From an uncultured Candidatus Saccharibacteria bacterium (GTDB lineage Bacteria > Patescibacteriota > Minisyncoccia > Phycocordibacterales > UBA9973), in contig CAZGNC010000002.1 of the NCBI GenBank assembly GCA_964527235.1, forward strand, positions 82,381-146,380: a stretch of DNA of 64,000 nucleotides, given 5' to 3'. Below are positions 3,513 through 63,113 of the stretch, piece by piece. Position numbers and translations under genes: made by a program. Within the stretch, counting starts at the first letter, position 1; every line of letters begins with the position of its first letter. The notes below the pieces were generated by a model. That model ran no database searches. It saw only the letters and a list, made by a program, of their open reading frames with translations, and was not told the DNA's origin.

Positions 3513-5231
3513 TTGGGCTATACTTTATATACAATGGCATCTTTTGATGAAGAAAAGCAGAATAAAGACCTAGAAGACCTGCTCAAAGAAGAGGAAGAGC
3601 AGTTGGTGCAGATGTTGGCAGAAACTAAATACAACATGCCTTACGCCAACATGCTAAATATCGGTATCGACAACGAGGCACTTAGGTCTATCCCCGAAAG
3701 CGAAGCCGTCGCTCATGGAGTCGCTCCTTTTAAACTTTCAGGTAAAAATATTTTCATCGGTGTTCGCTCTCCTTCTCCTGAATTAATGCAAGATATTTAT
3801 GAAAAAATTGAGAAACAGGGATTGATACCGGTTTTTTATATGGTTTCCAAACGAAGCCTGGAGAAAGTCTGGAGTCGTTATAAGGAACTTTCACTAGCAG
3901 AAAATTCTAAAGCGGGAGGCATCGAAGTCTCAGCAACGGCACTTCAAGAAATAATCAGCAAGATAGCCAAGATGCAAGACGTCAGCAATCTGATCAACCA
4001 AACCGTCGAAGAAGAAAAAGTTCACAAAATCTCTCACCTCCTAGAAATTATTCTAGCTGGAGCCATAGCTATCAAAGCATCAGACGTGCACATAGAGCCA
4101 GAAAAAGACGGCTGTCGCGTTAGACTAAGACTGGACGGAGTACTCCAAGACGTCGCTTATTTAAAAATGGATGTATATCCTCTGCTTGATTCCCGCATCA
4201 AGCTTCTATCTGGAGTAAAATTAAATTCTCAAACCACTCAAGACGGAAGATTTAGTATTGTTGAGGGTGGAGCTGAAATAAATGTCCGTTCTTCTTTTAT
4301 TCCTGGAGCATACGGAGACTCTATCTCTATGAGAGTGCTCGACCCAAGAGCTATCCAAATAAAAATGGAGGAAATGGGAATGGATGCTTCTCTGCTTAAA
4401 CTCGTAGAACAAAACATTGCGAAACCAAACGGGCTCATCTTGGTTACAGGACCAACTGGCTCGGGTAAAACCACTACTCTTTATGCTTTCTTAAGTAAGA
4501 TTTACTCTACTGAAATAAACATAATAACCATCGAAGACCCTATCGAATACCACCTAAATGGCATCACTCAAACCCAAATAAACCTAGGCAACAACTACAC
4601 CTTCCCTGAGGGTCTGCGTTCAGCACTACGCCAAGACCCCGACGTAATAATGGTGGGAGAAATACGCGACGAAGACACTGCAAAAATAGCAGTGCAGTCG
4701 GCCCTCACTGGACACATGGTTTTCTCAACACTTCACACCAACAACGCAGCCGGTACAATCCCCCGCTTGATAGACCTTGGAGTAAATGCAAAGATTTTAG
4801 TCTCTGCGCTATCACTCTCAATGGCACAGCGCTTGGTCAGAAAACTCTGCACAAATTGCAAAAAAGAAAGATCTCTTACCGAAGAAGAGTCTGGCTTGTT
4901 TAAAACAATTATAAGTCAGATGAAAGAAGACGGTAAAGAATTAGAAAAGTTTGGAGTAAAGAATGCCGATACGGATAAAGTATTTTCTGCAGTTGGGTGT
5001 GAGAAATGCAACATGACTGGATACACAGGTAGGGTTGGAATATTCGAAGCAATCAAAACAGACGAGGCTATTGAGAAAGTTATGACAGAAAACCCAAGCG
5101 AGCGAGAAATAAAGAAAGCTGCACGAAAGCAAGGAATCCTAACTATGCGCGAAGATGGTATTGTGAAAATTCTAAGTGGTATTACTTCTATCGAAGAAGT
5201 CGCGGGAGTAGTAGATCTAAAAGAGGAATAA
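3513..5231 (+). CDS. pilB: Type IV pilus / type II secretion assembly ATPase (PilB/GspE family)
   Basis: Walker A GPTGSGKTT, GspE-type Asp/His boxes, and a C-terminal tetracysteine motif (CTNCKK...CEKC). The start may instead be MASFDEE at 3534. No pilC or pilM neighbour is present in the window. Confidence 0.85.
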   Translation: MGYTLYTMASFDEEKQNKDLEDLLKEEEEQLVQMLAETKYNMPYANMLNIGIDNEALRSIPESEAVAHGVAPFKLSGKNIFIGVRSPSPELMQDIYEKIEKQGLIPVFYMVSKRSLEKVWSRYKELSLAENSKAGGIEVSATALQEIISKIAKMQDVSNLINQTVEEEKVHKISHLLEIILAGAIAIKASDVHIEPEKDGCRVRLRLDGVLQDVAYLKMDVYPLLDSRIKLLSGVKLNSQTTQDGRFSIVEGGAEINVRSSFIPGAYGDSISMRVLDPRAIQIKMEEMGMDASLLKLVEQNIAKPNGLILVTGPTGSGKTTTLYAFLSKIYSTEINIITIEDPIEYHLNGITQTQINLGNNYTFPEGLRSALRQDPDVIMVGEIRDEDTAKIAVQSALTGHMVFSTLHTNNAAGTIPRLIDLGVNAKILVSALSLSMAQRLVRKLCTNCKKERSLTEEESGLFKTIISQMKEDGKELEKFGVKNADTDKVFSAVGCEKCNMTGYTGRVGIFEAIKTDEAIEKVMTENPSEREIKKAARKQGILTMREDGIVKILSGITSIEEVAGVVDLKEE

Positions 5232-5257
5232 TCGAACTAAGTCTATTAGTGCAAAAA

Positions 5258-6034
5258 CTAGTTCAACAACCCTTTGAAAACCAAACAGGCTGGCCCAGTC
5301 AGCCAAATATTATCGTAATTTCCCTCTGATTTTTTTTCAAACTCTACAAGAAGCTTCCCTCCTCTAGTTTGAACAGTGCAAACATTACTAGCTAAAAGCC
5401 CTAAATGATGTGCTGCTATCGCTACAGAAGTAGAGCCAGTACCGCAAGCCATTGTCTCATCTTCTACCCCTCTCTCGTAAGTACGAACATGCAGAACTCC
5501 ATCCTTAATTTGAGTAAAATTTGTATTGACCCCATTCGGATCCGAATACCTTATCTTGCGACCTTCAGACACAACAGGGAAATTTTCAATATCTTCCACA
5601 AACATCACATTGTGTGGCGTAGTGCCAGAAAACAAAAACGGCAGATTGTTGCGTGTTAAAATTTGAGAAACATTTTGCATTTTTAATTTAACAATATCTC
5701 CATCTATCTCTGCTTTATGCTCTCCATCCACCGCCATGAAATAAACTTCTTTCGGATTTTTTATTATCTTTAAAACATTGTGTGCGAAATGCACGATACA
5801 CCTTCCTCCATTACCACACATTGCACCTGTGCTGCCATCACTGTTTATATAAACCATTCTGAAATCAAACCCGGGCTCTTCTTCTAAAAGCATTATCCCG
5901 TCTGCTCCAACGCCAAACCTCCTGTGACACAAAAGCTTAATTAATTCTATGTCTTTTTTATCAAAAAGAGGATCTCTGTTGTCTATCAATATAAAATCAT
6001 TACCTGCACCGTGATATTTATAGAAATTTTGCAT
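5258..6034 (-). CDS. dapF: Diaminopimelate epimerase
   Basis: N-terminal YHGAGNDFILID and the catalytic-Cys motif MCGNGGRC. Confidence 0.85.
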   Translation of the reverse strand: MQNFYKYHGAGNDFILIDNRDPLFDKKDIELIKLLCHRRFGVGADGIMLLEEEPGFDFRMVYINSDGSTGAMCGNGGRCIVHFAHNVLKIIKNPKEVYFMAVDGEHKAEIDGDIVKLKMQNVSQILTRNNLPFLFSGTTPHNVMFVEDIENFPVVSEGRKIRYSDPNGVNTNFTQIKDGVLHVRTYERGVEDETMACGTGSTSVAIAAHHLGLLASNVCTVQTRGGKLLVEFEKKSEGNYDNIWLTGPACLVFKGLLN

Positions 6035-6430: not shown

Positions 6431-7090
6431 ATGATCAAAATACACCCGATTGTGCGGGAAATATTACTAAAAGAAGTAGAGGCGCTGTTTGCCTTAACTA
6501 ACGGGTATATGAATATGAGTAGCTATGCTCACCGCATACTCCCCCGAGTAGAAGCCAAAGCCAAGAAACCGGTCACCATAACCAGCCTAGTCGTCTCTTT
6601 ATCACGGCTTAAAAAAGAATTAAAAAAGGAGAAACCCCTGATACATAATGTAAAAATAAAAAACATTACCACCAAACTACCCTTATCTGAAATAATTTAT
6701 GAAAATAGTAACAAATTTATTAACGAGCTAGAATCTCTGCACAAGAACATATCTTTAACCCAGGAAGATTTTTTCACCACCACCATAGGAACCACTGAAG
6801 TTGATATTATCTGTTCTTCTAATTTAGAAAGCAAAATACTTAAACATTTTAAAATAAAACCCAAATTTACAAATCATGGCTTTGCCGCCATAGGAGTTTC
6901 ATACGGACCTGAAGTTTTCGGCACCCCGAACGTCTTCTTTTCCCTTCTATCTATCACAGCTCGAGCACGCATCAACATTGAAGAGCTGGTTTCCACACCG
7001 ACTGAATTAATTTTTATTGTCGCAGAGAAAGATTTTAGTAAAACCGTGGCTTTGTTTTCAGAATTACATCGAGAAGTTCGTGAGAAATAA
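6431..7090 (+). CDS. Hypothetical protein (possible ACT-like regulatory fold)
   Basis: 219-aa ORF with a coherent composition and no recognisable catalytic motif. Confidence 0.45.
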   Translation: MIKIHPIVREILLKEVEALFALTNGYMNMSSYAHRILPRVEAKAKKPVTITSLVVSLSRLKKELKKEKPLIHNVKIKNITTKLPLSEIIYENSNKFINELESLHKNISLTQEDFFTTTIGTTEVDIICSSNLESKILKHFKIKPKFTNHGFAAIGVSYGPEVFGTPNVFFSLLSITARARINIEELVSTPTELIFIVAEKDFSKTVALFSELHREVREK

Positions 7091-48602: not shown

Positions 48603-49001
48603 TTAACAGCTTTTTTTAATTCTTTCGCGTAGGCTAGTACTACTAAAGTTATGCTCTCTGCTATTGAAGATAATAGGAATGGTTAGGTCGTCTCCAGTAA
48701 AAGGCTTCCCTTTATGGTCCGCACCAACAAACCTAACGTCCGGCTTTAGTTTTTTAAGAAGTTTATATAAATCTGATTCAGTTTCATATATCACTATTTC
48801 GTCTACATATTTCGATCCTTCAAGGCGGATCCTCCTCTCTTCTAGAGATTCTATAGGTTTGTTTTTGTGAGGTCTATCTATGGTTGGGTCGGTTTGTAAG
48901 CCAACGACAAGATAATCGCATTGTTCTTTGCACTCTTTTAGCATAAGAACATGACCTGCATGCAGTAAGTCCATTGTTCCGCATGTAAATCCCCTTTTCA
49001 T
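48603..49001 (-). CDS. Cytidylyltransferase-like nucleotidyltransferase (TagD/RfaE-domain-II-like)
   Basis: FTCGTMDLLHAGH is the (H/T)xGH nucleotidyltransferase motif; about 132 aa. The true start is MKRGFTCG. The longer track ORF would overlap tRNA-Pro. Confidence 0.6.
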   Translation of the reverse strand: MKRGFTCGTMDLLHAGHVLMLKECKEQCDYLVVGLQTDPTIDRPHKNKPIESLEERRIRLEGSKYVDEIVIYETESDLYKLLKKLKPDVRFVGADHKGKPFTGDDLTIPIIFNSREHNFSSTSLRERIKKSC

Positions 49002-49074
49002 GGTCGGGCCGCTGGGAATTGAACCCAGTCTAAATGCTCCCAAAGCACTTGTACTACCGGTATACTACGGCCCG
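49001..49074 (-). tRNA. tRNA-Pro(TGG), CCA encoded
   Basis: Folded by hand: acceptor CGGGCCG/CGGCCCG, anticodon stem AGTGC/GCATT with loop TTTGGGA, T-arm CTGGG-TTCAATT-CCCAG, discriminator A, 4-nt variable loop. Confidence 0.75.
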
Positions 49075-49102
49075 TAACTTACAAAACTATTTGCCGAGTA
49101 TA

Positions 49103-49543
49103 TCACAGAATAATGTTTTTGACGACTTCTACCCTAGCTTTCTTGTTTTTTGTGTCTAGGAATACAACCAGTAAATCAACCTGCCAGTCTTGTTCATCTG
49201 GTGTATCTTTGTGCAGGAGGTATGTTTGGACCGTTCTTGATAGCCTTTTAAGCTTCCAGGGATGCATATTGTCCTCTGGTCGGTAGTCGTTTGTTTCATG
49301 TGTAACATCAGCAAGGTCTGACCTTGAGACACTTTTTACCTCTACAAAGTGAAGTTTGTTGTCCTTTTGAGCTATAATGTCTATTTCACCCCACTTCTTA
49401 GTGTAATTTCTTTCTAAAACCTCAAAACCTTGTTTCACGAGAAACCTTGTGGCGATGTTTTCTCCTGCTTCTCCTAGCTTTTGTGTGTCGGAAGTGAATT
49501 TTTTAGGCATATTGATTGATGTTTCATAAGAAACATGTTTCAC
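49103..49543 (-). CDS. YraN/UPF0102 family endonuclease-like protein
   Basis: GEAGENIATRFLVKQGFEVLERNY...GEIDIIAQKD..HFVEVKS matches the UPF0102 pattern. Start is GTG at 49543 or ATG at 49510. The palindromic repeats described in the findings lie in this 5' region. Confidence 0.7.
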   Translation of the reverse strand: MKHVSYETSINMPKKFTSDTQKLGEAGENIATRFLVKQGFEVLERNYTKKWGEIDIIAQKDNKLHFVEVKSVSRSDLADVTHETNDYRPEDNMHPWKLKRLSRTVQTYLLHKDTPDEQDWQVDLLVVFLDTKNKKARVEVVKNIIL

Positions 49544-49550
49544 GTGAAAC
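49432..49550. repeat. Three copies of a 14-bp palindrome GTTTC-N4-GAAAC
   Basis: Copies seen at 49432-49445 (gtttcacgagaaac), 49521-49534 (gtttcataagaaac) and 49537-49550 (gtttcacgtgaaac), in or near the yraN start. Confidence 0.6.
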
Positions 49551-49751
49551 GTTATGTGGTTTTTTGATGTCTTTTACTAAAATAACCTTATTTTACAACG
49601 TATTTTGAATAAAAAGGTGCTAAAAAGACACAAATTCAAACTGTCCTTTATTCACATACTAACAGACTTATCCACAGTTTCTGTTAATATGTTGATATTA
49701 TAAGTGTATATCTAAGGGACATAGACTAAAATTTGAACTAGGACGAATTTG

Positions 49752-49823
49752 TGCACCCGGAGGGATTCGAACCCCCAATGACAGTTCCGAAGACTGTAGT
49801 GATATCCATTTCACCACGGGTGC
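49752..49823 (-). tRNA. tRNA-Arg(TCG)
   Basis: Folded by hand: acceptor GCACCCG/CGGGTGC, D-arm GTGA/TCAC, anticodon stem ACAGT/ACTGT with loop CTTCGGA, T-arm GGGGG-TTCGAAT-CCCTC, 4-nt variable loop. Confidence 0.7.
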
Positions 49824-49943
49824 AATTGGAAACATTATACCCCATACTTGTGAATTTTCATAATATCCTTATTTTAATAGCTTATTTAAATAAATTGCAA
49901 TATGGTAAAATTAATATATAATTAAATGGTTAAAAGTAATAAA

Positions 49944-50014
49944 GCGGTCATGGTTTAGTGGTAGAACACGTCCTTGCCAAGGATGAGACGGGAGTTCGAT
50001 TCTCCCTGGCCGCA
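49944..50014 (+). tRNA. tRNA-Gly(GCC)
   Basis: Folded by hand: acceptor GCGGTCA/TGGCCGC, anticodon stem CGTCC/GGATG with loop TTGCCAA, T-arm GGGAG-TTCGATT-CTCCC, 4-nt variable loop. Confidence 0.85.
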
Positions 50015-50023
50015 CAGAATAGA

Positions 50024-54981: not shown

Positions 54982-55638
54982 TCAGCTTGATGTTCTCTTT
55001 CTGATTTTGTATGCGTCGACAATGAATCCCAGCGAGATAATCTGCTGGAGAGTGAACCATACGTATTGCTCTCTCCACATGAGCGTTGCAGTCACTACAT
55101 TCATCAGCATGTATGCGAAGTACTGTCGCTCGTCGTCCTTCGCTTGTAGGTACGTCCCAAGCAGAAACCCACCAGAAGCAGCAATTTCCAACCACTGGTT
55201 GATGGTGATGAACCCTCCAAAGTAGTGGAAACTGTAGCCAAGTCCGAACCCGATTAGTATGTATACAATCGGATCAAGCTGGCCGAGTGTCTGATCAATC
55301 TTCTCCTTGGTGGTACCGCGCATCGCGAGCAGGAGCCCGAGCACCATGACCGGAAATGCACCTGCCTCGAGGCCGGCGAATATCCAGTTATCCTTGATAA
55401 GGAGCATTGCGACCACTGCGGGCAATCCCGTGATGTACACCAGCCATGACCTAGTACGCCACGTTTGTGCGACCACTAGATCAATTCGCTTGGTCCGCTC
55501 ATACCGCGAACAGAAGATCTTGTGAAAGAGGTAGAACGCACCTCCCCAAGTTTGTAGAAAGACTTCCATCTGGTCCTCCGTTGTAGGGTTTCGACGAACT
55601 TTCGGATACATAATAGCACTTTTAAGGATTATTGTCAA
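54982..55638 (-). CDS. Polytopic membrane protein, possibly PnuC-like nucleoside transporter; GC content clearly above the local average
   Basis: About 7 TM, 218 aa. GC is roughly 50% by inspection against about 37% for neighbours. The family assignment is weak. Confidence 0.45.
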   Translation of the reverse strand: MTIILKSAIMYPKVRRNPTTEDQMEVFLQTWGGAFYLFHKIFCSRYERTKRIDLVVAQTWRTRSWLVYITGLPAVVAMLLIKDNWIFAGLEAGAFPVMVLGLLLAMRGTTKEKIDQTLGQLDPIVYILIGFGLGYSFHYFGGFITINQWLEIAASGGFLLGTYLQAKDDERQYFAYMLMNVVTATLMWREQYVWFTLQQIISLGFIVDAYKIRKRTSS

Positions 55639-55753
55639 TCTAATTCGTCAATAAATTGTTAAATATATTCAATATTTACAATATCTATTTTAAAAACAGC
55701 GTATTTTTGTCGAAAAATATTGACACAATTTGTTTTCCTGCTAAACTTTAAGT

Positions 55754-56539
55754 ATGGAAGATAGAAATAATGAGTTAAAAAATTCACTCATAGGTGTGGG
55801 GTTAAAGGAGAAGGAGGCGGATGTTTACTTGGCAATTTTATCCCTAGGTCAAGGCACCGCGTCAAAAATAGCACGCAAGGCTAGAATAGTACGTACGACC
55901 GCTTATGATATTTTAAGCTCGCTTTTTGATAAGGGGCTTGTGACTTTGACCGGTAAAGAACCTAAGCAAGAGTATGTGGCTGAATCTCCTGATAATCTTA
56001 AAATTTATATAGAAAGCGAACTGAAGAAAATCCAAACTGATTTAGATGGAGCTAAAAATATTTTAATTCCACAATTAAAATCAATCCATAATTTAAACAA
56101 TCGTCCCAAAGTTTTATTTTATGAAGGGAAAGAAGGGTTGGAGCGTGTCTATGAAGACACTCTTACTTCTAGTGAAGAAATCCTTGCTTATGCTAGTGTC
56201 GAAGATACTGAATTAACCTTGCCCAATTATTTTCCTAATTACTATAAAAGACGTGCCTCAAAAGGAATTTCAATTCGAGCAATATTCCCCGAATCACCAG
56301 AAGCACGCAGTCGAGCCAGTTTAGATAAAGAAGAAAAAAGAACATCTCTTATTGTTCCTGATAAGTATGGATTTCACCCTGAAATAAATATTTACGATAA
56401 TAAAATAATGATAGCTTCCTGGAGGGAGAAGCTTGGTGTGATTATCGAAAGTAGTGAAATCGCTGACGCAATGAAAAAAGTTTTCGAGCTTTCTTGGGCT
56501 GAGGCGAAGCGACTAGATATAGGTAGTTCTAAAACTTAA
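55754..56539 (+). CDS. TrmB-family transcriptional regulator
   Basis: N-terminal winged HTH typical of TrmB (LKEKEADVYLAILSLGQGTASKIARKARIVRTTAYDILSSLFDKGLV), followed by a C-terminal effector domain. Confidence 0.7.
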   Translation: MEDRNNELKNSLIGVGLKEKEADVYLAILSLGQGTASKIARKARIVRTTAYDILSSLFDKGLVTLTGKEPKQEYVAESPDNLKIYIESELKKIQTDLDGAKNILIPQLKSIHNLNNRPKVLFYEGKEGLERVYEDTLTSSEEILAYASVEDTELTLPNYFPNYYKRRASKGISIRAIFPESPEARSRASLDKEEKRTSLIVPDKYGFHPEINIYDNKIMIASWREKLGVIIESSEIADAMKKVFELSWAEAKRLDIGSSKT

Positions 56540-57959: not shown

Positions 57960-58937
57960 TTATTTTTTACTATGAAACTTCTTATGTATTTCTTTTAAAT
58001 GTTTATCTGTGACGTGGGTGTATATTTGCGTAGTGATAATGCTCGAATGGCCTAGTAGTGATTGCACAGATCGTATGTCTGCGCCGTTTGAGAGTAGGTC
58101 AGTGGCGAAGCAGTGTCGTATAACGTGCGGAGTTACTTTCTTGGCGATGCCCGCCTTAGTTGCGTAGAACTTTACTATTCGTTCTATCGAACGTCGGTCG
58201 AGGTTGCCGTATTCTTTACCTTTGTGTTTTTTCTTGTCATCACTTCCACTTTTTTTGTTTTTAGTTTTACTTAGTTCTGCGGGCTCGATACTTACGAAGA
58301 GCCCTTCTTCCATATCTTTGCGAGCATCTAGATATCTTTTCAGTGCAGATCTGGCTCGGTCAGAGATGAACACTACTCTTATTTTTCCACCCTTACCACG
58401 TACTGAGAGTTCTTCGGAGTTTGAGTTTAGGTTGCGCGATAGGGAACATAGCTCTCCCACGCGGAGCCCAGTAGAAAATAGTACTTCAAGTATGGCTTTG
58501 TCTCGCAATTCTTTTATGTCACTTCCTGATGGTGCAGCCAGAAGTCGCTCTAGTTCTTCGGCTGTTATAAGGTCTAGGTGTCTTTCATTTAGCTTTGCTA
58601 GTTCTATCTTGTCAGAGTTCATCGAGGTTATGTCTCTCTTGGCTAGATACTTAAGGAACATCCTCAGTGCAGTCATATAGTAGTTCTGAGTTCGTTTTGA
58701 AATTGTTTCGCGAATGTCTTTGTTGCGACCGGTGGGTTGGTTGTTGAGCCAAAGACGAAACTCTCTCACAGAGTCGAGGTTGATCTTGTCGGGACTCTTT
58801 ATCCCTTTTTTCTTTTCTATAAAATCCAAGTACTTACCGAGATAGAAGTCGTAGTTCTCGATAGTGCGTAACGCCGCCCCGCGCTCTATCTCTAAGTATT
58901 CTAAGAATTGCGTTTTAAGTTCTTTGAGTGTTGCCAC
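57960..58937 (-). CDS. Tyrosine site-specific recombinase, XerC/XerD-like, with a Lys-rich insertion
   Basis: Catalytic R...HxxR...Y region (HVIRHCFATDLL...GHSSIITTQIYTHV) and an N-terminal core-binding domain. There is an extra KNKKSGSDDKKKHKGKEYGN insert. Confidence 0.85.
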   Translation of the reverse strand: MATLKELKTQFLEYLEIERGAALRTIENYDFYLGKYLDFIEKKKGIKSPDKINLDSVREFRLWLNNQPTGRNKDIRETISKRTQNYYMTALRMFLKYLAKRDITSMNSDKIELAKLNERHLDLITAEELERLLAAPSGSDIKELRDKAILEVLFSTGLRVGELCSLSRNLNSNSEELSVRGKGGKIRVVFISDRARSALKRYLDARKDMEEGLFVSIEPAELSKTKNKKSGSDDKKKHKGKEYGNLDRRSIERIVKFYATKAGIAKKVTPHVIRHCFATDLLSNGADIRSVQSLLGHSSIITTQIYTHVTDKHLKEIHKKFHSKK

Positions 58938-59065
58938 CCCAATATTCTAGCATTTTATTGTCTGGGACATTGTGCGACATGGGTTGACTTTTGGGTGTTT
59001 TTATGTTTAATATATAGTAGGTTTGTAGTTCGTCTCAGGTTCACCCTTTAGAAGGAAAAGGTCCC

Positions 59066-59398
59066 ATGAACAGTGTCATTGCGCGTCGCCAGGGAATCCT
59101 TGTCCGGGCGGTCATCGTCATTCTTGCTCTTGCAAGCGTGGCGATCACAACCTCTCGCTCGCCGGTCAGGGCCTCAGTGAGGGGTGAAATCCCCGCTGAC
59201 GGGGAAACGTGGATCAAGGTGGATTCGGGTCGGCACGTGTTGGTGCCGAGCGAGGACATGATGTCGCTCACTCGCTTCCAGATCGACTCGATCTTGTGCA
59301 AGTGGGAGCCGGAGAATGCTCCGGCGGTGTATTGCAACCCTGCTGATCGCAAGGTGTTCACGCCGGACAGCGTCCGGCGGATGGTCGGGACGAAGTAG
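59066..59398 (+). CDS. GC-rich small secreted or membrane-anchored hypothetical protein (110 aa)
   Basis: The ORF has a good Shine-Dalgarno (aggaaaagg) and an N-terminal hydrophobic segment. GC is roughly 60% in an approximately 37% GC genome. Confidence 0.45.
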   Translation: MNSVIARRQGILVRAVIVILALASVAITTSRSPVRASVRGEIPADGETWIKVDSGRHVLVPSEDMMSLTRFQIDSILCKWEPENAPAVYCNPADRKVFTPDSVRRMVGTK

Positions 59399-59416
59399 TT
59401 TCGTCCCCAGTGTTAC

Positions 59417-59450
59417 CGGCCCCGCCCACAAGCGGGGCCGTATCTATTTC
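59417..59450 (+). terminator. Rho-independent terminator (CGGCCCCGC ccacaa GCGGGGCCG followed by a T-rich run)
   Basis: Perfect 9-bp GC stem followed by TATCTATTTCC. Confidence 0.6.
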
Positions 59451-59496
59451 CATAGACCCCCTTGCTTTTTTATAGGTTTTATGCTAGGATATACGT

Positions 59497-59760
59497 ATGT
59501 TAGCTACAAAGAAAAAACAGACAATTATTAAGAAACATCAGATTCACGAGAAAGATACTGGCTCCCCAGAGGTGCAGGTAGCTGTTTTGTCTACTCAAAT
59601 CGACGAATTAGCCAAGCATTTGAAGAAGCACAAGAAGGATAATCACTCCCGAAGAGGCCTAATCAAGATGGTTGCTGATCGCCGAACTCATTTGAAATAT
59701 TTAGAGCGCAAAAACAAGACTCGTTACGATGCTTTGGTCAAGAAAATGGACCTCGCGTAA
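59497..59760 (+). CDS. rpsO: 30S ribosomal protein S15
   Basis: ...GSPEVQVAVLSTQIDELAKHLKKHKKDNHSRRGLIKMVADRR... is the S15 signature; 87 aa. Confidence 0.9.
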   Translation: MLATKKKQTIIKKHQIHEKDTGSPEVQVAVLSTQIDELAKHLKKHKKDNHSRRGLIKMVADRRTHLKYLERKNKTRYDALVKKMDLA

Positions 59761-59786
59761 TATCTCCTCGGTGCTATAATTAAAAT

Positions 59787-60302
59787 ATGACAGTTATAAA
59801 ACATAAAGAACAGCGTGTCGGGGTTTTTATCGATACGCAAAATCTCTATCACAGTGCTCGCAATTTATATAAAGCTCGGGTTAATTTCGGTGCGGTATTA
59901 AAAGATGCAGTCGCGGGGCGCAAGCTCGTGCGTGCGGTGGCGTACGTCATCACTACCGAAGCGGGGGATGAGAAGAATTTCTTCGAAGCTCTAGAGAAGT
60001 TAGGTATCGAAACCAAGACTAAAGATTTACAAATTTTTGCTGGCGGATCCAAGAAAGCTGACTGGGACGTGGGTCTTGCAGTAGATGCTATCAAGATGTC
60101 TGCGCGACTAGACTCTGTAATAATTGTTTCTGGAGACGGGGACTTTATTCCTCTTGTTGAATACTTACAGACTATCGGTGTGCAGGTTGAGGTGGTTTCG
60201 TTTGGTAAATCAACTTCTGGGAAACTACGTGAAACTGTAGATGACTTCGTGGATCTTTCTGAGAATCCTCGCAAGTATCTCATGATGAGTGGTGGGAAAT
60301 AG
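59787..60302 (+). CDS. NYN/LabA-like (DUF88) domain protein
   Basis: VGVFIDTQNLYHSA...VIIVSGDGDFIPLVEYLQTIGVQVEVVSF matches the NYN-domain Asp pattern; 171 aa. Confidence 0.7.
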   Translation: MTVIKHKEQRVGVFIDTQNLYHSARNLYKARVNFGAVLKDAVAGRKLVRAVAYVITTEAGDEKNFFEALEKLGIETKTKDLQIFAGGSKKADWDVGLAVDAIKMSARLDSVIIVSGDGDFIPLVEYLQTIGVQVEVVSFGKSTSGKLRETVDDFVDLSENPRKYLMMSGGK

Positions 60303-60391
60303 GGCTTGACCTAACATAAGTTCGGGTGTAGTTTGAGCTTAGAGTTCTTACTCGTTTGTTACTGTGTTATTCCTCAACAGGAGTGTGTGCC

Positions 60392-60808
60392 ATGGAAATG
60401 CCTCGCGGTACGGCTGACAGGAAGGACAGGATCCATATCTTGTCGCAGATCTGCGATTCTGTTCTCCCATACGTCTGCCAGCAGCAAGCTGAGTACCACA
60501 ATATCTGGGCTGTTGTTGCGGAGAAGGTGCCTGGATTTGTTCTTCTGCTTGCTGCAGGCAATGTATGGTATGAGGTTGCTGACTTCGACGATCGGCGCCT
60601 GGCAGTATGTGACTGGAGCAGGTATTCGTACGAGAACATCTTGCTCAGCTTAGCAACTGCTGTTGGGCAAGCACTTGATTGCCCGATCGAGGATGCAACA
60701 GCTTCAGGCGGAATTCCGCCCGAAGCAGTCCGTTCAAGACTCCTGGCTGTGCAGGAAGTCCTAAATGGCATTGTCGCACAGGAACTTCGTGCGTCGGCTC
60801 TCAAGTAG
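60392..60808 (+). CDS. GC-rich hypothetical cytoplasmic protein (about 138 aa)
   Basis: ATG preceded by a strong Shine-Dalgarno (caggag). GC is roughly 55-60%. The overlapping alternative-frame ORFs are typical of GC-rich DNA and were discounted. Confidence 0.4.
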   Translation: MEMPRGTADRKDRIHILSQICDSVLPYVCQQQAEYHNIWAVVAEKVPGFVLLLAAGNVWYEVADFDDRRLAVCDWSRYSYENILLSLATAVGQALDCPIEDATASGGIPPEAVRSRLLAVQEVLNGIVAQELRASALK

Positions 60809-60832
60809 CCTGTTCCGACATCGTTCTGGATG

Positions 60833-60876
60833 GCGGGCGCCTCAATCGAGGCGCCCGCTTTTTGTTTGATTTTTCA
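60833..60876 (+). terminator. Rho-independent terminator (GCGGGCGCCTC aatc GAGGCGCCCGC followed by TTTTTGTTTGATTTTT)
   Basis: Perfect 11-bp GC stem plus a T-run. Confidence 0.65.
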
Positions 60877-60998
60877 CTTGAAAATGCTAATCTATACTAA
60901 GTAATTATTAGTTAATCAGTTCGCGTTCGGACACATAGTAATTGTTCTTGAAGTATAAGGAACAATACTGCAGTTCGAACACGAGCTCTAAGTAAATT

Positions 60999-63113
60999 AT
61001 GCAAAAAAAAGAATATAGTTTAGAGATCGGCGGTAAAACCCTAACGGCTATTTTTACCGATTTGGCAGAGCAGGCTCACGGTTCAGTGATGCTTAAGTAT
61101 GGCGAGACTATTGTCTTGGCTACAACTTGTATATCAAAAGACAAGCAAGAAGGTCTTGGCTTTTTTAATTTAACTGTAGACTATGTTGAGAGGTTTTATG
61201 CTGCGGGTAAGATTTCTGGATCGAAGTTTGTGAAGAGAGAAGGCAAACCCAGCGAAGACGCCATACTAGCTAGTCGTGTCATCGACCGCACACTACGCCC
61301 GTTATTTGATCAGTCTATTCGCCATGCGGTGCAGGTGATAGTGACGGTTATATCAGTAGATGATAACGACCCTACAATTCTCGCAGTTAATGCTGTATCC
61401 CTTGCACTAGCAGTATCGGACATTCCATGGAACGGCCCAGTAGGCGCAGTACGTATAGGTAGATACGATGATGAAACTCTTAAAGTAAATGCAGTTCAGG
61501 GTCTTCGTGAAGATGATGCGAAATATAAATTCGACCTTACTGTTTGCGGTAAGGATGGCAACATCAACATGATCGAGGCTTCGGCGCACCAGACTAGCGA
61601 GGATGAGCTTGAAAGTGCCCTTGCGCAAGCAGTAGAAGAAATCGCTAAGCTTGAGAATTTCCAGAAACAAATAGTCAAAGAAATCGGTAAAGTAAAAAGA
61701 GTTATCGAGAAAGAAGAAATAAATCCCGAGTCAGTCGAACTATTTAAAGAAAATATATTACCAAAGATGGAGCAGGCTATTTTCGCTGGTCCAGGAAAGA
61801 AGGAGATAGACGCACTGCACAGTGAATGGAACAAAATGGTGAAAGCCAAGTATCCAGACAGGAAAGATTTTGCTTTAGAAGACGCGCTTTTTGACGACAC
61901 TGAAAATGACATATTACACAAGAAGGCGATAGAGAGTGACAAGCGCGCCGACGGGCGAGCCATGGATGAGCTACGCGATCTCTATGCGCAAGCAGGAGGG
62001 CTATCGACCGTACTACATGGTTCTGGGATTTTCTATCGAGGAGGTACGCACGTTCTCTCTGTTCTAACTCTTGGAGGACCAGAAGATAAACACATGGTTG
62101 ACGGCATGCAGACAAAGTCTGAGAAAAGATTTATGCACCACTACAACTTCCCACCTTATTCAGCAGGTGAGGTTGGTCGTGCAGGATTTACCAATCGTCG
62201 TGAAGTTGGGCACGGAGCGCTGGCTGAGAAAGCATTGCTCATGGTTCTGCCTTCTCCGGTAGAGTTCCCATACACTATGCGTGTAGTTTCTGAATCAATG
62301 GCATCCAACGGTTCTACCTCACAGGCGTCTATCTGTGCAGGCACACTCGCGCTAATGGATGGTGGCGTACCTATCAAGGCACCTGTTGCTGGTATCGCGA
62401 TGGGGTTGATGTATGAGAGTGATAGTAAATATAAAATTCTTACTGACATTCAAGGCCCTGAAGATCATCACGGAGATATGGATTTCAAAGTTGCCGGCAC
62501 TCGCGAAGGCATCACCGCGATTCAGCTCGATGTGAAAGTCGATGGCGTGCCAGTTAAGATCCTAGGCGAAGCTATGCGTCAGTCAAAGAAAGCCCGCCTT
62601 TCTATAATCGACAGAATTGAGAAAGAAATAAGTGCCCCAAGAAAAGAAATTTCTACCAATGCGCCGAAGATATTGATGATGAGAATTAAGCCTGATCAGA
62701 TAGGGATGGTTATAGGTAGTGGTGGTAAGACAATCAAAGAAATAAAGGAAAACAGTGGTGCTGAAATCACTATCGAAGATGATGGTACTGTGTACTTCAC
62801 AGGTAAAGACGGCTCTGCTGAGAAAGCTAAGAAAATAGTAGAAGAAATGACTCATGAATTTAAAATTGGCGAAACTCTGAAAGGCGAAGTTGTGAAAATT
62901 GCCGACTTCGGAGCATTTGTGAAATTAAATTCTTGGACTGATGGCATGGTGCATATTTCAGAGATGGCGCCATTTCGCGTAGAGCGAGTTTCGGATATAA
63001 TAAAAGAAGGAATGATTGTGCCAGTGAAAGTTATCAAGATAGATACTGAACGTGGCAAACTAAGTTTGTCGATTAAAGAAGCAGATAAAGATTTCTTTAA
63101 GAAGCCTTTATAG
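60999..63113 (+). CDS. pnp: Polynucleotide phosphorylase (PNPase)
   Basis: Two RNase PH-like domains, a KH domain (GKVIGSGGKTIKEI) and an S1 domain (GETLKGEVVKIADFGAFVKL); 704 aa. Confidence 0.95.
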   Translation: MQKKEYSLEIGGKTLTAIFTDLAEQAHGSVMLKYGETIVLATTCISKDKQEGLGFFNLTVDYVERFYAAGKISGSKFVKREGKPSEDAILASRVIDRTLRPLFDQSIRHAVQVIVTVISVDDNDPTILAVNAVSLALAVSDIPWNGPVGAVRIGRYDDETLKVNAVQGLREDDAKYKFDLTVCGKDGNINMIEASAHQTSEDELESALAQAVEEIAKLENFQKQIVKEIGKVKRVIEKEEINPESVELFKENILPKMEQAIFAGPGKKEIDALHSEWNKMVKAKYPDRKDFALEDALFDDTENDILHKKAIESDKRADGRAMDELRDLYAQAGGLSTVLHGSGIFYRGGTHVLSVLTLGGPEDKHMVDGMQTKSEKRFMHHYNFPPYSAGEVGRAGFTNRREVGHGALAEKALLMVLPSPVEFPYTMRVVSESMASNGSTSQASICAGTLALMDGGVPIKAPVAGIAMGLMYESDSKYKILTDIQGPEDHHGDMDFKVAGTREGITAIQLDVKVDGVPVKILGEAMRQSKKARLSIIDRIEKEISAPRKEISTNAPKILMMRIKPDQIGMVIGSGGKTIKEIKENSGAEITIEDDGTVYFTGKDGSAEKAKKIVEEMTHEFKIGETLKGEVVKIADFGAFVKLNSWTDGMVHISEMAPFRVERVSDIIKEGMIVPVKVIKIDTERGKLSLSIKEADKDFFKKPL

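Follow-up and report, generated by a model that had tools for sequence, protein, structure and literature searches.

An NYN-domain gene and a strain-specific GC-rich cassette between rpsO and pnp in a Paceibacteria genome

The genes for ribosomal protein S15 (rpsO) and polynucleotide phosphorylase (PNPase; pnp) are neighbours in Escherichia coli and in many other bacteria. In a 64,000-nt stretch of contig CAZGNC010000002.1 (the window), a segment of ~39% GC from a tiny bacterial genome, both genes belong to a cluster that spans 57.9-63.1 kb, but they are separated by a gene for an NYN-domain protein and by a GC-rich open reading frame (ORF) of 138 aa, orf138. A first-pass annotation of this DNA gave the order rpsO, NYN, GC-rich ORF, pnp, which is borne out for all four elements, and read it as an interrupted operon. 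The question raised by this locus is whether an ancestral gene pair has been broken up by foreign DNA, or whether part of what lies between the two genes belongs there. The reading favoured here, with a probability of about 0.75, is that the NYN gene is an ancestral member of the Paceibacteria rpsO-pnp cluster, and that the strain has in addition acquired a 557-bp accessory cassette carrying orf138.

The NYN gene and its place in the cluster

The NYN gene (59787-60302, + strand) encodes a 171-aa protein, in which residues 10-157 match positions 1-144 of the 145-position PF01936 profile (119.5 bits, against a cut-off of 24.2). Among solved structures, 2QIP comes closest, the LabA-like protein VPA0982 of Vibrio parahaemolyticus, whose annotation gives no function; the two align over 153 residues (E 2e-23). 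The protein has more than 8000 homologues, and the best 120 are all 92-100% identical to it. Those among the 120 that carry names come from Candidatus Paceibacterota, Pacebacteria, the Patescibacteria group and Minisyncoccia, and these names assign the window to a Paceibacteria genome of the candidate phyla radiation (CPR).

A scan of one genome per species yielded 80 Paceibacteria loci, picked by NYN similarity. In 76 of them rpsO is located directly upstream of the NYN gene and on the same strand, as it is in the window (59497-59760, + strand; PF00312, 7.7e-31). The left end of the cluster is conserved too: in most of the 80 loci, rpsO is preceded by a gene for an Xer-type tyrosine recombinase in divergent orientation (57960-58937 in the window, - strand; Pfam Phage_integrase, 2.9e-38). 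On the other side, 62 loci extend 3 kb or more beyond NYN, and in 39 of these pnp (60999-63113, + strand; two RNase_PH domains, KH and S1) follows. Across the 80 species the NYN protein is 72-96% identical and its gene has native GC. Because of this adjacency to rpsO, the high identity and the native composition, the NYN gene is, as far as comparative sequence evidence goes, an ancestral core gene of the cluster and not an insertion. The first-pass annotation, which took it for an insertion into the rpsO-pnp operon, had itself pointed to related genomes as the place where this view could fail, and there the gene is in place clade-wide, while the gap between NYN and pnp varies. A contiguous rpsO-pnp operon interrupted by two insertions, namely the NYN gene and the GC-rich ORF, the latter from the same related foreign source as a second GC-rich block at 59041-59460, would fit the textbook adjacency of rpsO and pnp. 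It is nevertheless improbable, being refuted for the NYN gene by the synteny survey and by the extreme purifying selection described below; what it says of the two GC-rich blocks is considered in a later section.

All four genes are present in 33 loci, where identity to the window averages 81% for NYN, 76% for S15, 67% for PNPase and 58% for Xer, and NYN is more conserved than PNPase in all 33 and than S15 in 25, in a comparison that is biased upward for NYN by the way the loci were selected. At shorter range, the protein is 100% identical to its counterparts on contigs L001 and L005-L009 of sister strains (6001-6516 in L001) at only ~90% DNA identity, all ~50 nucleotide differences being synonymous. 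Purifying selection on the gene, as read from these alignments, is unusually strong. Residues D16, D92, D94, D117 and D119 are at least 98% conserved in 81 sequences, and we take them, from the published description of the NYN domain, to be the metal-binding active site of the PIN-like/NYN fold. A role in RNA processing alongside PNPase is plausible and is supported, not proven, by the conserved position, so that the functional link to PNPase regarded as conceivable in the first-pass annotation gains some ground; a literature search found no paper linking NYN with Patescibacteria or CPR in such a role. The gene is thus a concrete candidate for a core endoribonuclease of the CPR, whose RNA-decay machinery is poorly understood, and it is a more significant biological lead than the cassette.

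The spacer between rpsO and NYN also differs among relatives. L001 (5870-5985), L006, L007, L010, L013 and L014 carry a ~105-nt multi-hairpin element there, with compensatory changes in 10 of 13 predicted pairs and no Rfam match. The window strain has lost this element, and a 26-nt spacer (59761-59786) remains.

The expression signals of the native genes follow a common pattern. A TGCTA(G/T)(A/G)AT box ends exactly 6 nt before the start codon of xer, rpsO and NYN. Its -10 hexamer is TAGAAT at 58944-58949 (- strand) before the GTG of xer and occupies 59485-59490 before the ATG of rpsO, as part of a native promoter TTGCTT-17-TAGGAT (59462-59496, + strand) that is kept in L001, L005, L006 and L007. 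Before the ATG of the NYN gene the hexamer lies at 59775-59780, within the extended -10 promoter TGCTATAAT (59772-59786, + strand), and an equivalent TGnTAnnAT box precedes NYN in L001, L010, L011 and L012. Since the -10 box ends only 6 nt before the start codon, the xer, rpsO and NYN mRNAs are predicted to be leaderless. The window contains 48 ORFs of 120 aa or more. A TAnnnT box stands 4-9 nt ahead of the ATG in 28 of them, and a Shine-Dalgarno (SD) motif (GGAG, GAGG or AGGA at -18 to -5) is found in only one, orf138. On this count the genome appears to be SD-less and largely leaderless.

The exception among the native genes is pnp. Its promoter region TGCTAATCTATACT (60885-60898, + strand), kept in L001, L009, L016 and L019, is followed by a leader of ~100 nt that contains a long irregular hairpin (60917-60992, + strand) with a fold z-score of -6.1. 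This hairpin shows compensatory changes in 8 of 18 pairs across eight species and has no Rfam match; it may be the counterpart of the autoregulatory pnp leader of E. coli. Some relatives (L001 at 6560-6585, L005, L006, L008 and L014) carry an insertion in the promoter-leader region of pnp, a short GC palindrome, CCTGCCTGCGCAGGCAGG, that is missing from the window and from L009. It may be a miniature repeat element.

A 557-bp cassette in the NYN-pnp spacer

The GC-rich ORF has a different kind of context. It forms part of a strain-specific unit of 557 bp (60303-60859, + strand; cassette 2), in which a promoter-like module, TTGACC (60306-60311) and TAGTTT (60329-60334) with a 17-nt spacing, is followed by a leader of ~57 nt, an SD sequence AGGAG (60379-60383) 8 nt before the ATG, orf138 itself (60392-60808, + strand) and a hairpin at 60832-60859 with 12 pairs (10 of them G-C) and a 4-nt loop, after which comes TTTTTGTTTG. 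The composition of orf138 is 53% GC, against 37-44% for native genes. The strong SD and GC stem terminator attributed to the ORF by the first-pass annotation are thus present, and a GC-rich stem-loop with an immediate T-run, the signature of an intrinsic terminator, can be recognized at 60832-60859 in the sequence. The T-run, however, which had been counted as part of the cassette, is native DNA (60860-60879, + strand) that also occurs at the empty sites, directly after the NYN stop codon; the insert brings the hairpin only.

These empty sites establish the insertion polymorphism. In contigs L001 and L005-L009, the closest relatives, the alignment with the window breaks off after the NYN stop codon and picks up again at the T-tract, with the pnp promoter behind it. 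Their sequence reads ...GGGAAATAA|TTTTCTTGTTTTTTCC..CAAAATGCTAATC, and in the window 557 bp stand between the two halves. Cassette 2 therefore sits exactly between the NYN stop codon and the native T-tract and leaves the pnp promoter intact, and the view that the GC-rich ORF varies by insertion holds. Three sequencing runs, each assembled on its own, gave contigs L002, L003 and L004. All three match the window at 100% identity over the two junctions, which excludes the assembly chimera that had been raised as a caveat.

A word-indexed search of 5.8 G proteins returned Orf138 only, and an exhaustive phmmer search of 1.84 G representatives found two homologues, P0122 (E 1.5e-25) and P0123 (E 3.3e-20), each ~45% identical to it. 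A third match, to a cadherin-repeat protein, was judged false, and a profile search gave the same three matches. P0123 is encoded on another Paceibacteria contig, L090, where the order is rpsO, NYN (95% identical), an S51 peptidase gene and the cassette. On the P0122 contig the upstream gene, not confirmed as NYN, ends 86 nt before the ORF, against 89 nt in the window. In a codon alignment of the window and L090 copies, differences by codon position number 59/43/87, 32 of 61 identical residues use different codons, and the other two reading frames are full of stops. Given the protein-level homologues, the excess of third-position differences and the stops in the control frames, the alignments identify orf138 as a real gene under protein-coding selection, the member of a three-protein family. 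The noncoding parts are conserved as well, namely TTGACC-N8-GTTnGGGTGTAGTTTG, AGGAG, a CATCGTT motif and the start of the hairpin, so that the unit as a whole, from promoter to hairpin, is a conserved entity.

Two further explanations, that the GC-rich block encodes a structured non-coding RNA or is a chimera with DNA of a GC-richer organism, draw on its elevated GC and on the unusual predicted stability of its mRNA. The cassette 2 transcript (60335-60825) folds at z -3.7 without and -4.9 with the terminator, and that of the other GC-rich block, cassette 1 (59020-59410), at z -3.6, against -0.35 for NYN. Both are highly improbable, as coding is supported by the protein-level homologues and by the way differences spread over the codon positions, the L090 counterpart reaches only z -1.4, an Rfam search of the cassette gave no match, and the three separate assemblies share both junctions.

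Nothing in the databases points to a function. Orf138 has no significant match in Pfam, NCBIfam, PHROGs or PADLOC, a profile search of the PDB gave only noise, and Foldseek found no match for a low-confidence model with a predicted local distance difference test score (pLDDT) of 60. The homology search suggested by the first-pass annotation, with immunity-protein families in mind, thus came back empty for these and for any other family. Further relatives were recovered neither by tblastn against plasmids and phages nor from metagenome and viral contigs, which were scanned for the conserved 5' DNA module as well as for protein patterns. Orf138 is a genuine protein, cytoplasmic and fast-evolving, that occurs in this lineage only. 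The best guess at its role is an accessory factor at the strain level, dispensable and outside the RNA-decay machinery.

Alternatively, Orf138 might have a functional tie to the RNA-decay genes around it, for instance by modulating or inhibiting PNPase or the NYN nuclease, and its place in a variable spacer would then be no coincidence. Small partner proteins often accompany NYN/PIN-like nucleases, as in PIN-toxin systems, and at least two, possibly all three, members of the Orf138 family are encoded 3' of NYN. Such coupling is rather doubtful: Orf138 occurs in ~3 genomes while NYN is universal, another gene stands between the two in L090, promoter and terminator both belong to the cassette itself, the spacer is occupied by unrelated genes in other species, and Orf138 matches no family or fold. 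A PIN/NYN toxin-antitoxin pair was rejected on the same grounds, with NYN being near-invariant besides.

Whether the cassette was gained by the window strain or lost by its relatives can be weighed from its distribution. At the DNA level, NYN of L090 is 80% identical to that of the window, the same distance as L010-L014, which are without the cassette. As both L010-L014 and the window's own clade lack it, parsimony favours a gain in the window lineage. The opposite account, in which the cassette is an old, fast-evolving resident of the NYN-pnp spacer that has been repeatedly deleted, so that the window is ancestral and the empty sites are losses, is unlikely but has observations on its side. 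The 45%-identical homologue in L090 also lies 3' of NYN and keeps the promoter module, the SD and the same third-position GC (GC3); the 86-nt distance on the P0122 contig is close to the 89 nt of the window; the family is found nowhere else; and Xer identity at similar distance is only ~60%, so that 45% is not extreme. Yet the clean and mutually alignable empty spacers of L001, L005-L009 and L010-L014 would require several precise losses, long residence should have decayed GC3 and the SD towards the SD-less, ~39% GC background, and the position in L090 differs, being after the extra S51 peptidase gene. GC3 is 0.53 in orf138 and 0.52 in the L090 homologue, compared with 0.35-0.45 in neighbouring genes.

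The spacer itself is a recurrent variable site, a hot spot by sequence comparison: its length between NYN and pnp varies among species, with extremes of 46 bp and 3.4 kb, and unrelated genes with native GC occur in it (GDSL-like, SIS/MurQ-like and membrane proteins). Cassette 2 is, in this setting, an ordinary accessory ORFan islet with unusual foreign-type signals.

In the favoured reading, the locus would be the Paceibacteria version of the rpsO-pnp RNA-metabolism cluster, ancestrally with a LabA-like NYN protein, a predicted endoribonuclease, as the product of its third core gene. The xer, rpsO and NYN genes would each be expressed leaderless from a TGnTAnnAT box, and pnp from its own promoter with the hairpin leader. 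Into the short and variable NYN-pnp spacer the strain would have taken up a self-contained 557-bp cassette, most likely by recombination across the strongly conserved genes on either side, with either a related genome or an unsampled source of higher GC and with SD use as the donor. Orf138 would then be expressed independently of its neighbours, from the promoter of the cassette, and translated via an SD in a genome otherwise without SD use. The cassette hairpin, which abuts the pre-existing T-tract, would complete an intrinsic terminator that ends both cassette and upstream transcription; read-through from rpsO and NYN into pnp would be blocked, and pnp would be left dependent on its own promoter and leader.

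Several points weigh against this reading. The promoter and terminator of cassette 2 are consensus matches only, and the -10-like hexamer TAGTTT is weak and was missed by a promoter scan. A homologous cassette of the same elevated GC (0.51; GC3 0.52) occurs 3' of NYN and the S51 peptidase gene in the different lineage of L090, which leaves the direction unproven. There are no terminal inverted or direct repeats and no target duplications at 60303 or 60859, so no mobility mechanism is indicated. No donor was found, nor any homologue outside this context in ~15 billion proteins, plasmids, phages, and viral and metagenome contigs, an odd outcome for DNA imported recently from a GC-rich organism. 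The structure model of Orf138 is poor, so its function is a guess, and the lead of NYN over the other genes in conservation carries the selection bias mentioned above.

Other GC-rich units near the cluster

Across the window, only 3 of 160 400-nt bins exceed 50% GC (55.2-55.6, 59.2-59.6 and 60.4-60.8 kb), and all three lie within 6 kb. The middle one belongs to the 59041-59460 block (52-60% GC), part of cassette 1 (58980-59460, + strand), which is flanked by the divergent leaderless promoters of xer and rpsO. Cassette 1 has a promoter-like module TTGACT-18-TAATAT (58984-59013), a leader, an SD GAAGGA (59051-59056), orf110 (59066-59398), which encodes a signal or transmembrane segment and a domain with two Cys, and a hairpin at 59417-59440 with 9 bp, all G-C. 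A + strand homologue of orf110 in L001 and L005 shows 57% aa identity with in-frame indels and a GC3 of 0.75, against 0.76 in the window; cassette 1 is absent in L006. A public gene call of 182 aa on the - strand of L001 (4990-5538) is probably spurious, the conserved ORF there being the + strand orf110 homologue (5141-5506).

A related origin of two insertions flanking rpsO, as proposed in the first-pass annotation and in the two-insertion account above, has the shared architecture in its favour, for both blocks carry a canonical promoter, leader, SD, ORF and hairpin, unlike the native leaderless genes. Both are also polymorphic, orf138 being absent in L001 and L005-L009 and orf110 in L006. 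This likeness of build is what remains of the proposal. The two ORFs are dissimilar (no BLASTP hit at E<=100), their GC3 differs (0.53 in orf138 and 0.76 in orf110), and orf110 is already shared, in diverged form, with a sister species, so that the two did not arrive jointly. Cassettes 1 and 2 share their shape, with no demonstrable common origin, and the case for a related origin is weak. No viral relatives were found of orf110 or of a 218-aa membrane ORF.

A third GC-rich unit (54982-55640, - strand) repeats the pattern of the first two and carries a multi-pass membrane ORF of ~196 aa, with its true start, MEVFLQ, at 55572, a near-perfect promoter TTGACA-17-TATTAT, an SD GGAGGA and a weak, sub-threshold match to PnuC/NMN transporters (E 0.003). 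Neither the unit nor the TrmB-like gene of native GC beside it (55754-56539) occurs in L001, where a response-regulator gene abuts the TMEM175 gene. Small GC-rich units led by an SD also occur at other Paceibacteria loci. In L014 (951-1600) there is a 135-aa ORF of 63% GC with AGGAG and flanking GC hairpins, and GC-rich filler occupies the same xer-rpsO site in L088 (4340-4610); the 12-mer AAGGAGAAGCAG is common to these last two units.

It is a long shot that the units at 54982-55640, 58980-59460 and 60303-60859, together with similar ones in relatives (e.g., L014 951-1600), represent an undescribed class of miniature autonomous gene cassettes circulating among Paceibacteria and landing preferentially in the promoter-containing spacers of the xer-rpsO-NYN-pnp cluster, or, in a variant, that Orf138 serves, in this lineage only, to modulate the universal NYN nuclease. 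If this were true, such cassettes would bring a canonical promoter, leader, SD and hairpin into leaderless, SD-less genomes. More generally, the contrast of SD-led GC-rich cassettes with leaderless, SD-less native genes may serve as a simple sequence marker for recently acquired or mobile genes, and the SDs of the cassettes raise the question of whether SD-led messages are translated in such genomes.

Elsewhere in the window, the cumulative GC skew has its minimum at ~38-50 kb, and near 49.6-50 kb, next to a cluster of tRNA genes (49001-50015), the bias in coding strand switches sides. The replication origin region may lie at ~38-50 kb.

Comparison with known systems

Cassettes of integrons and integrative mobile elements exploiting Xer (IMEX) resemble the window cassettes in being single-ORF units that end in an inverted repeat, here a few kb from a tyrosine recombinase gene. 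The window cassettes differ in having their own promoters, conserved as a module in cassette 2, and hairpins that are perfect GC palindromes (11 nt in cassette 2) without attC features. No GTTRRRY core occurs at the junctions, there are no flanking dif-like repeats, and the recombinase is a syntenic housekeeping Xer-type gene, conserved in all relatives whatever their cassette content; on these features of promoter, hairpin, junctions and synteny, both identities were rejected for cassette 2. An insertion sequence or miniature inverted-repeat transposable element was likewise rejected, as there are no terminal repeats or target-site duplication and orf138 matches no transposase family.

The closer likeness of cassette 2 is to strain-specific islets and ORFans inserted by flank-mediated recombination, with which it shares presence/absence variation, atypical composition, clean empty sites, a recurrently variable spacer and the lack of transposase or repeats. 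It differs in being only 557 bp long and in carrying full expression signals (leader and SD) that host genes do not use; in addition, its diverged copy keeps these signals and the elevated GC, and no donor is detectable.

With LabA-like NYN proteins (PF01936; VPA0982/2QIP; cyanobacterial LabA) the window protein shares a full-length, single-domain match and the invariant acidic residues. It differs as the product of a near-invariant, clade-wide and leaderless core gene fixed between rpsO and pnp, with a predicted ribonuclease activity; we know of no other LabA-like proteins so placed or so conserved.

Finally, the cluster resembles the rpsO-pnp operon of the E. coli type, with its pnp leader controlled by RNase III and PNPase, in that the genes for S15 and PNPase are in the same orientation in one cluster and pnp comes with a promoter of its own and with a long, conserved hairpin in its leader. 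In Paceibacteria, by contrast, a third gene, NYN, stands between them class-wide with its own promoter, and rpsO is predicted to be leaderless; in the window strain, a terminator-bearing cassette lies in between as well.

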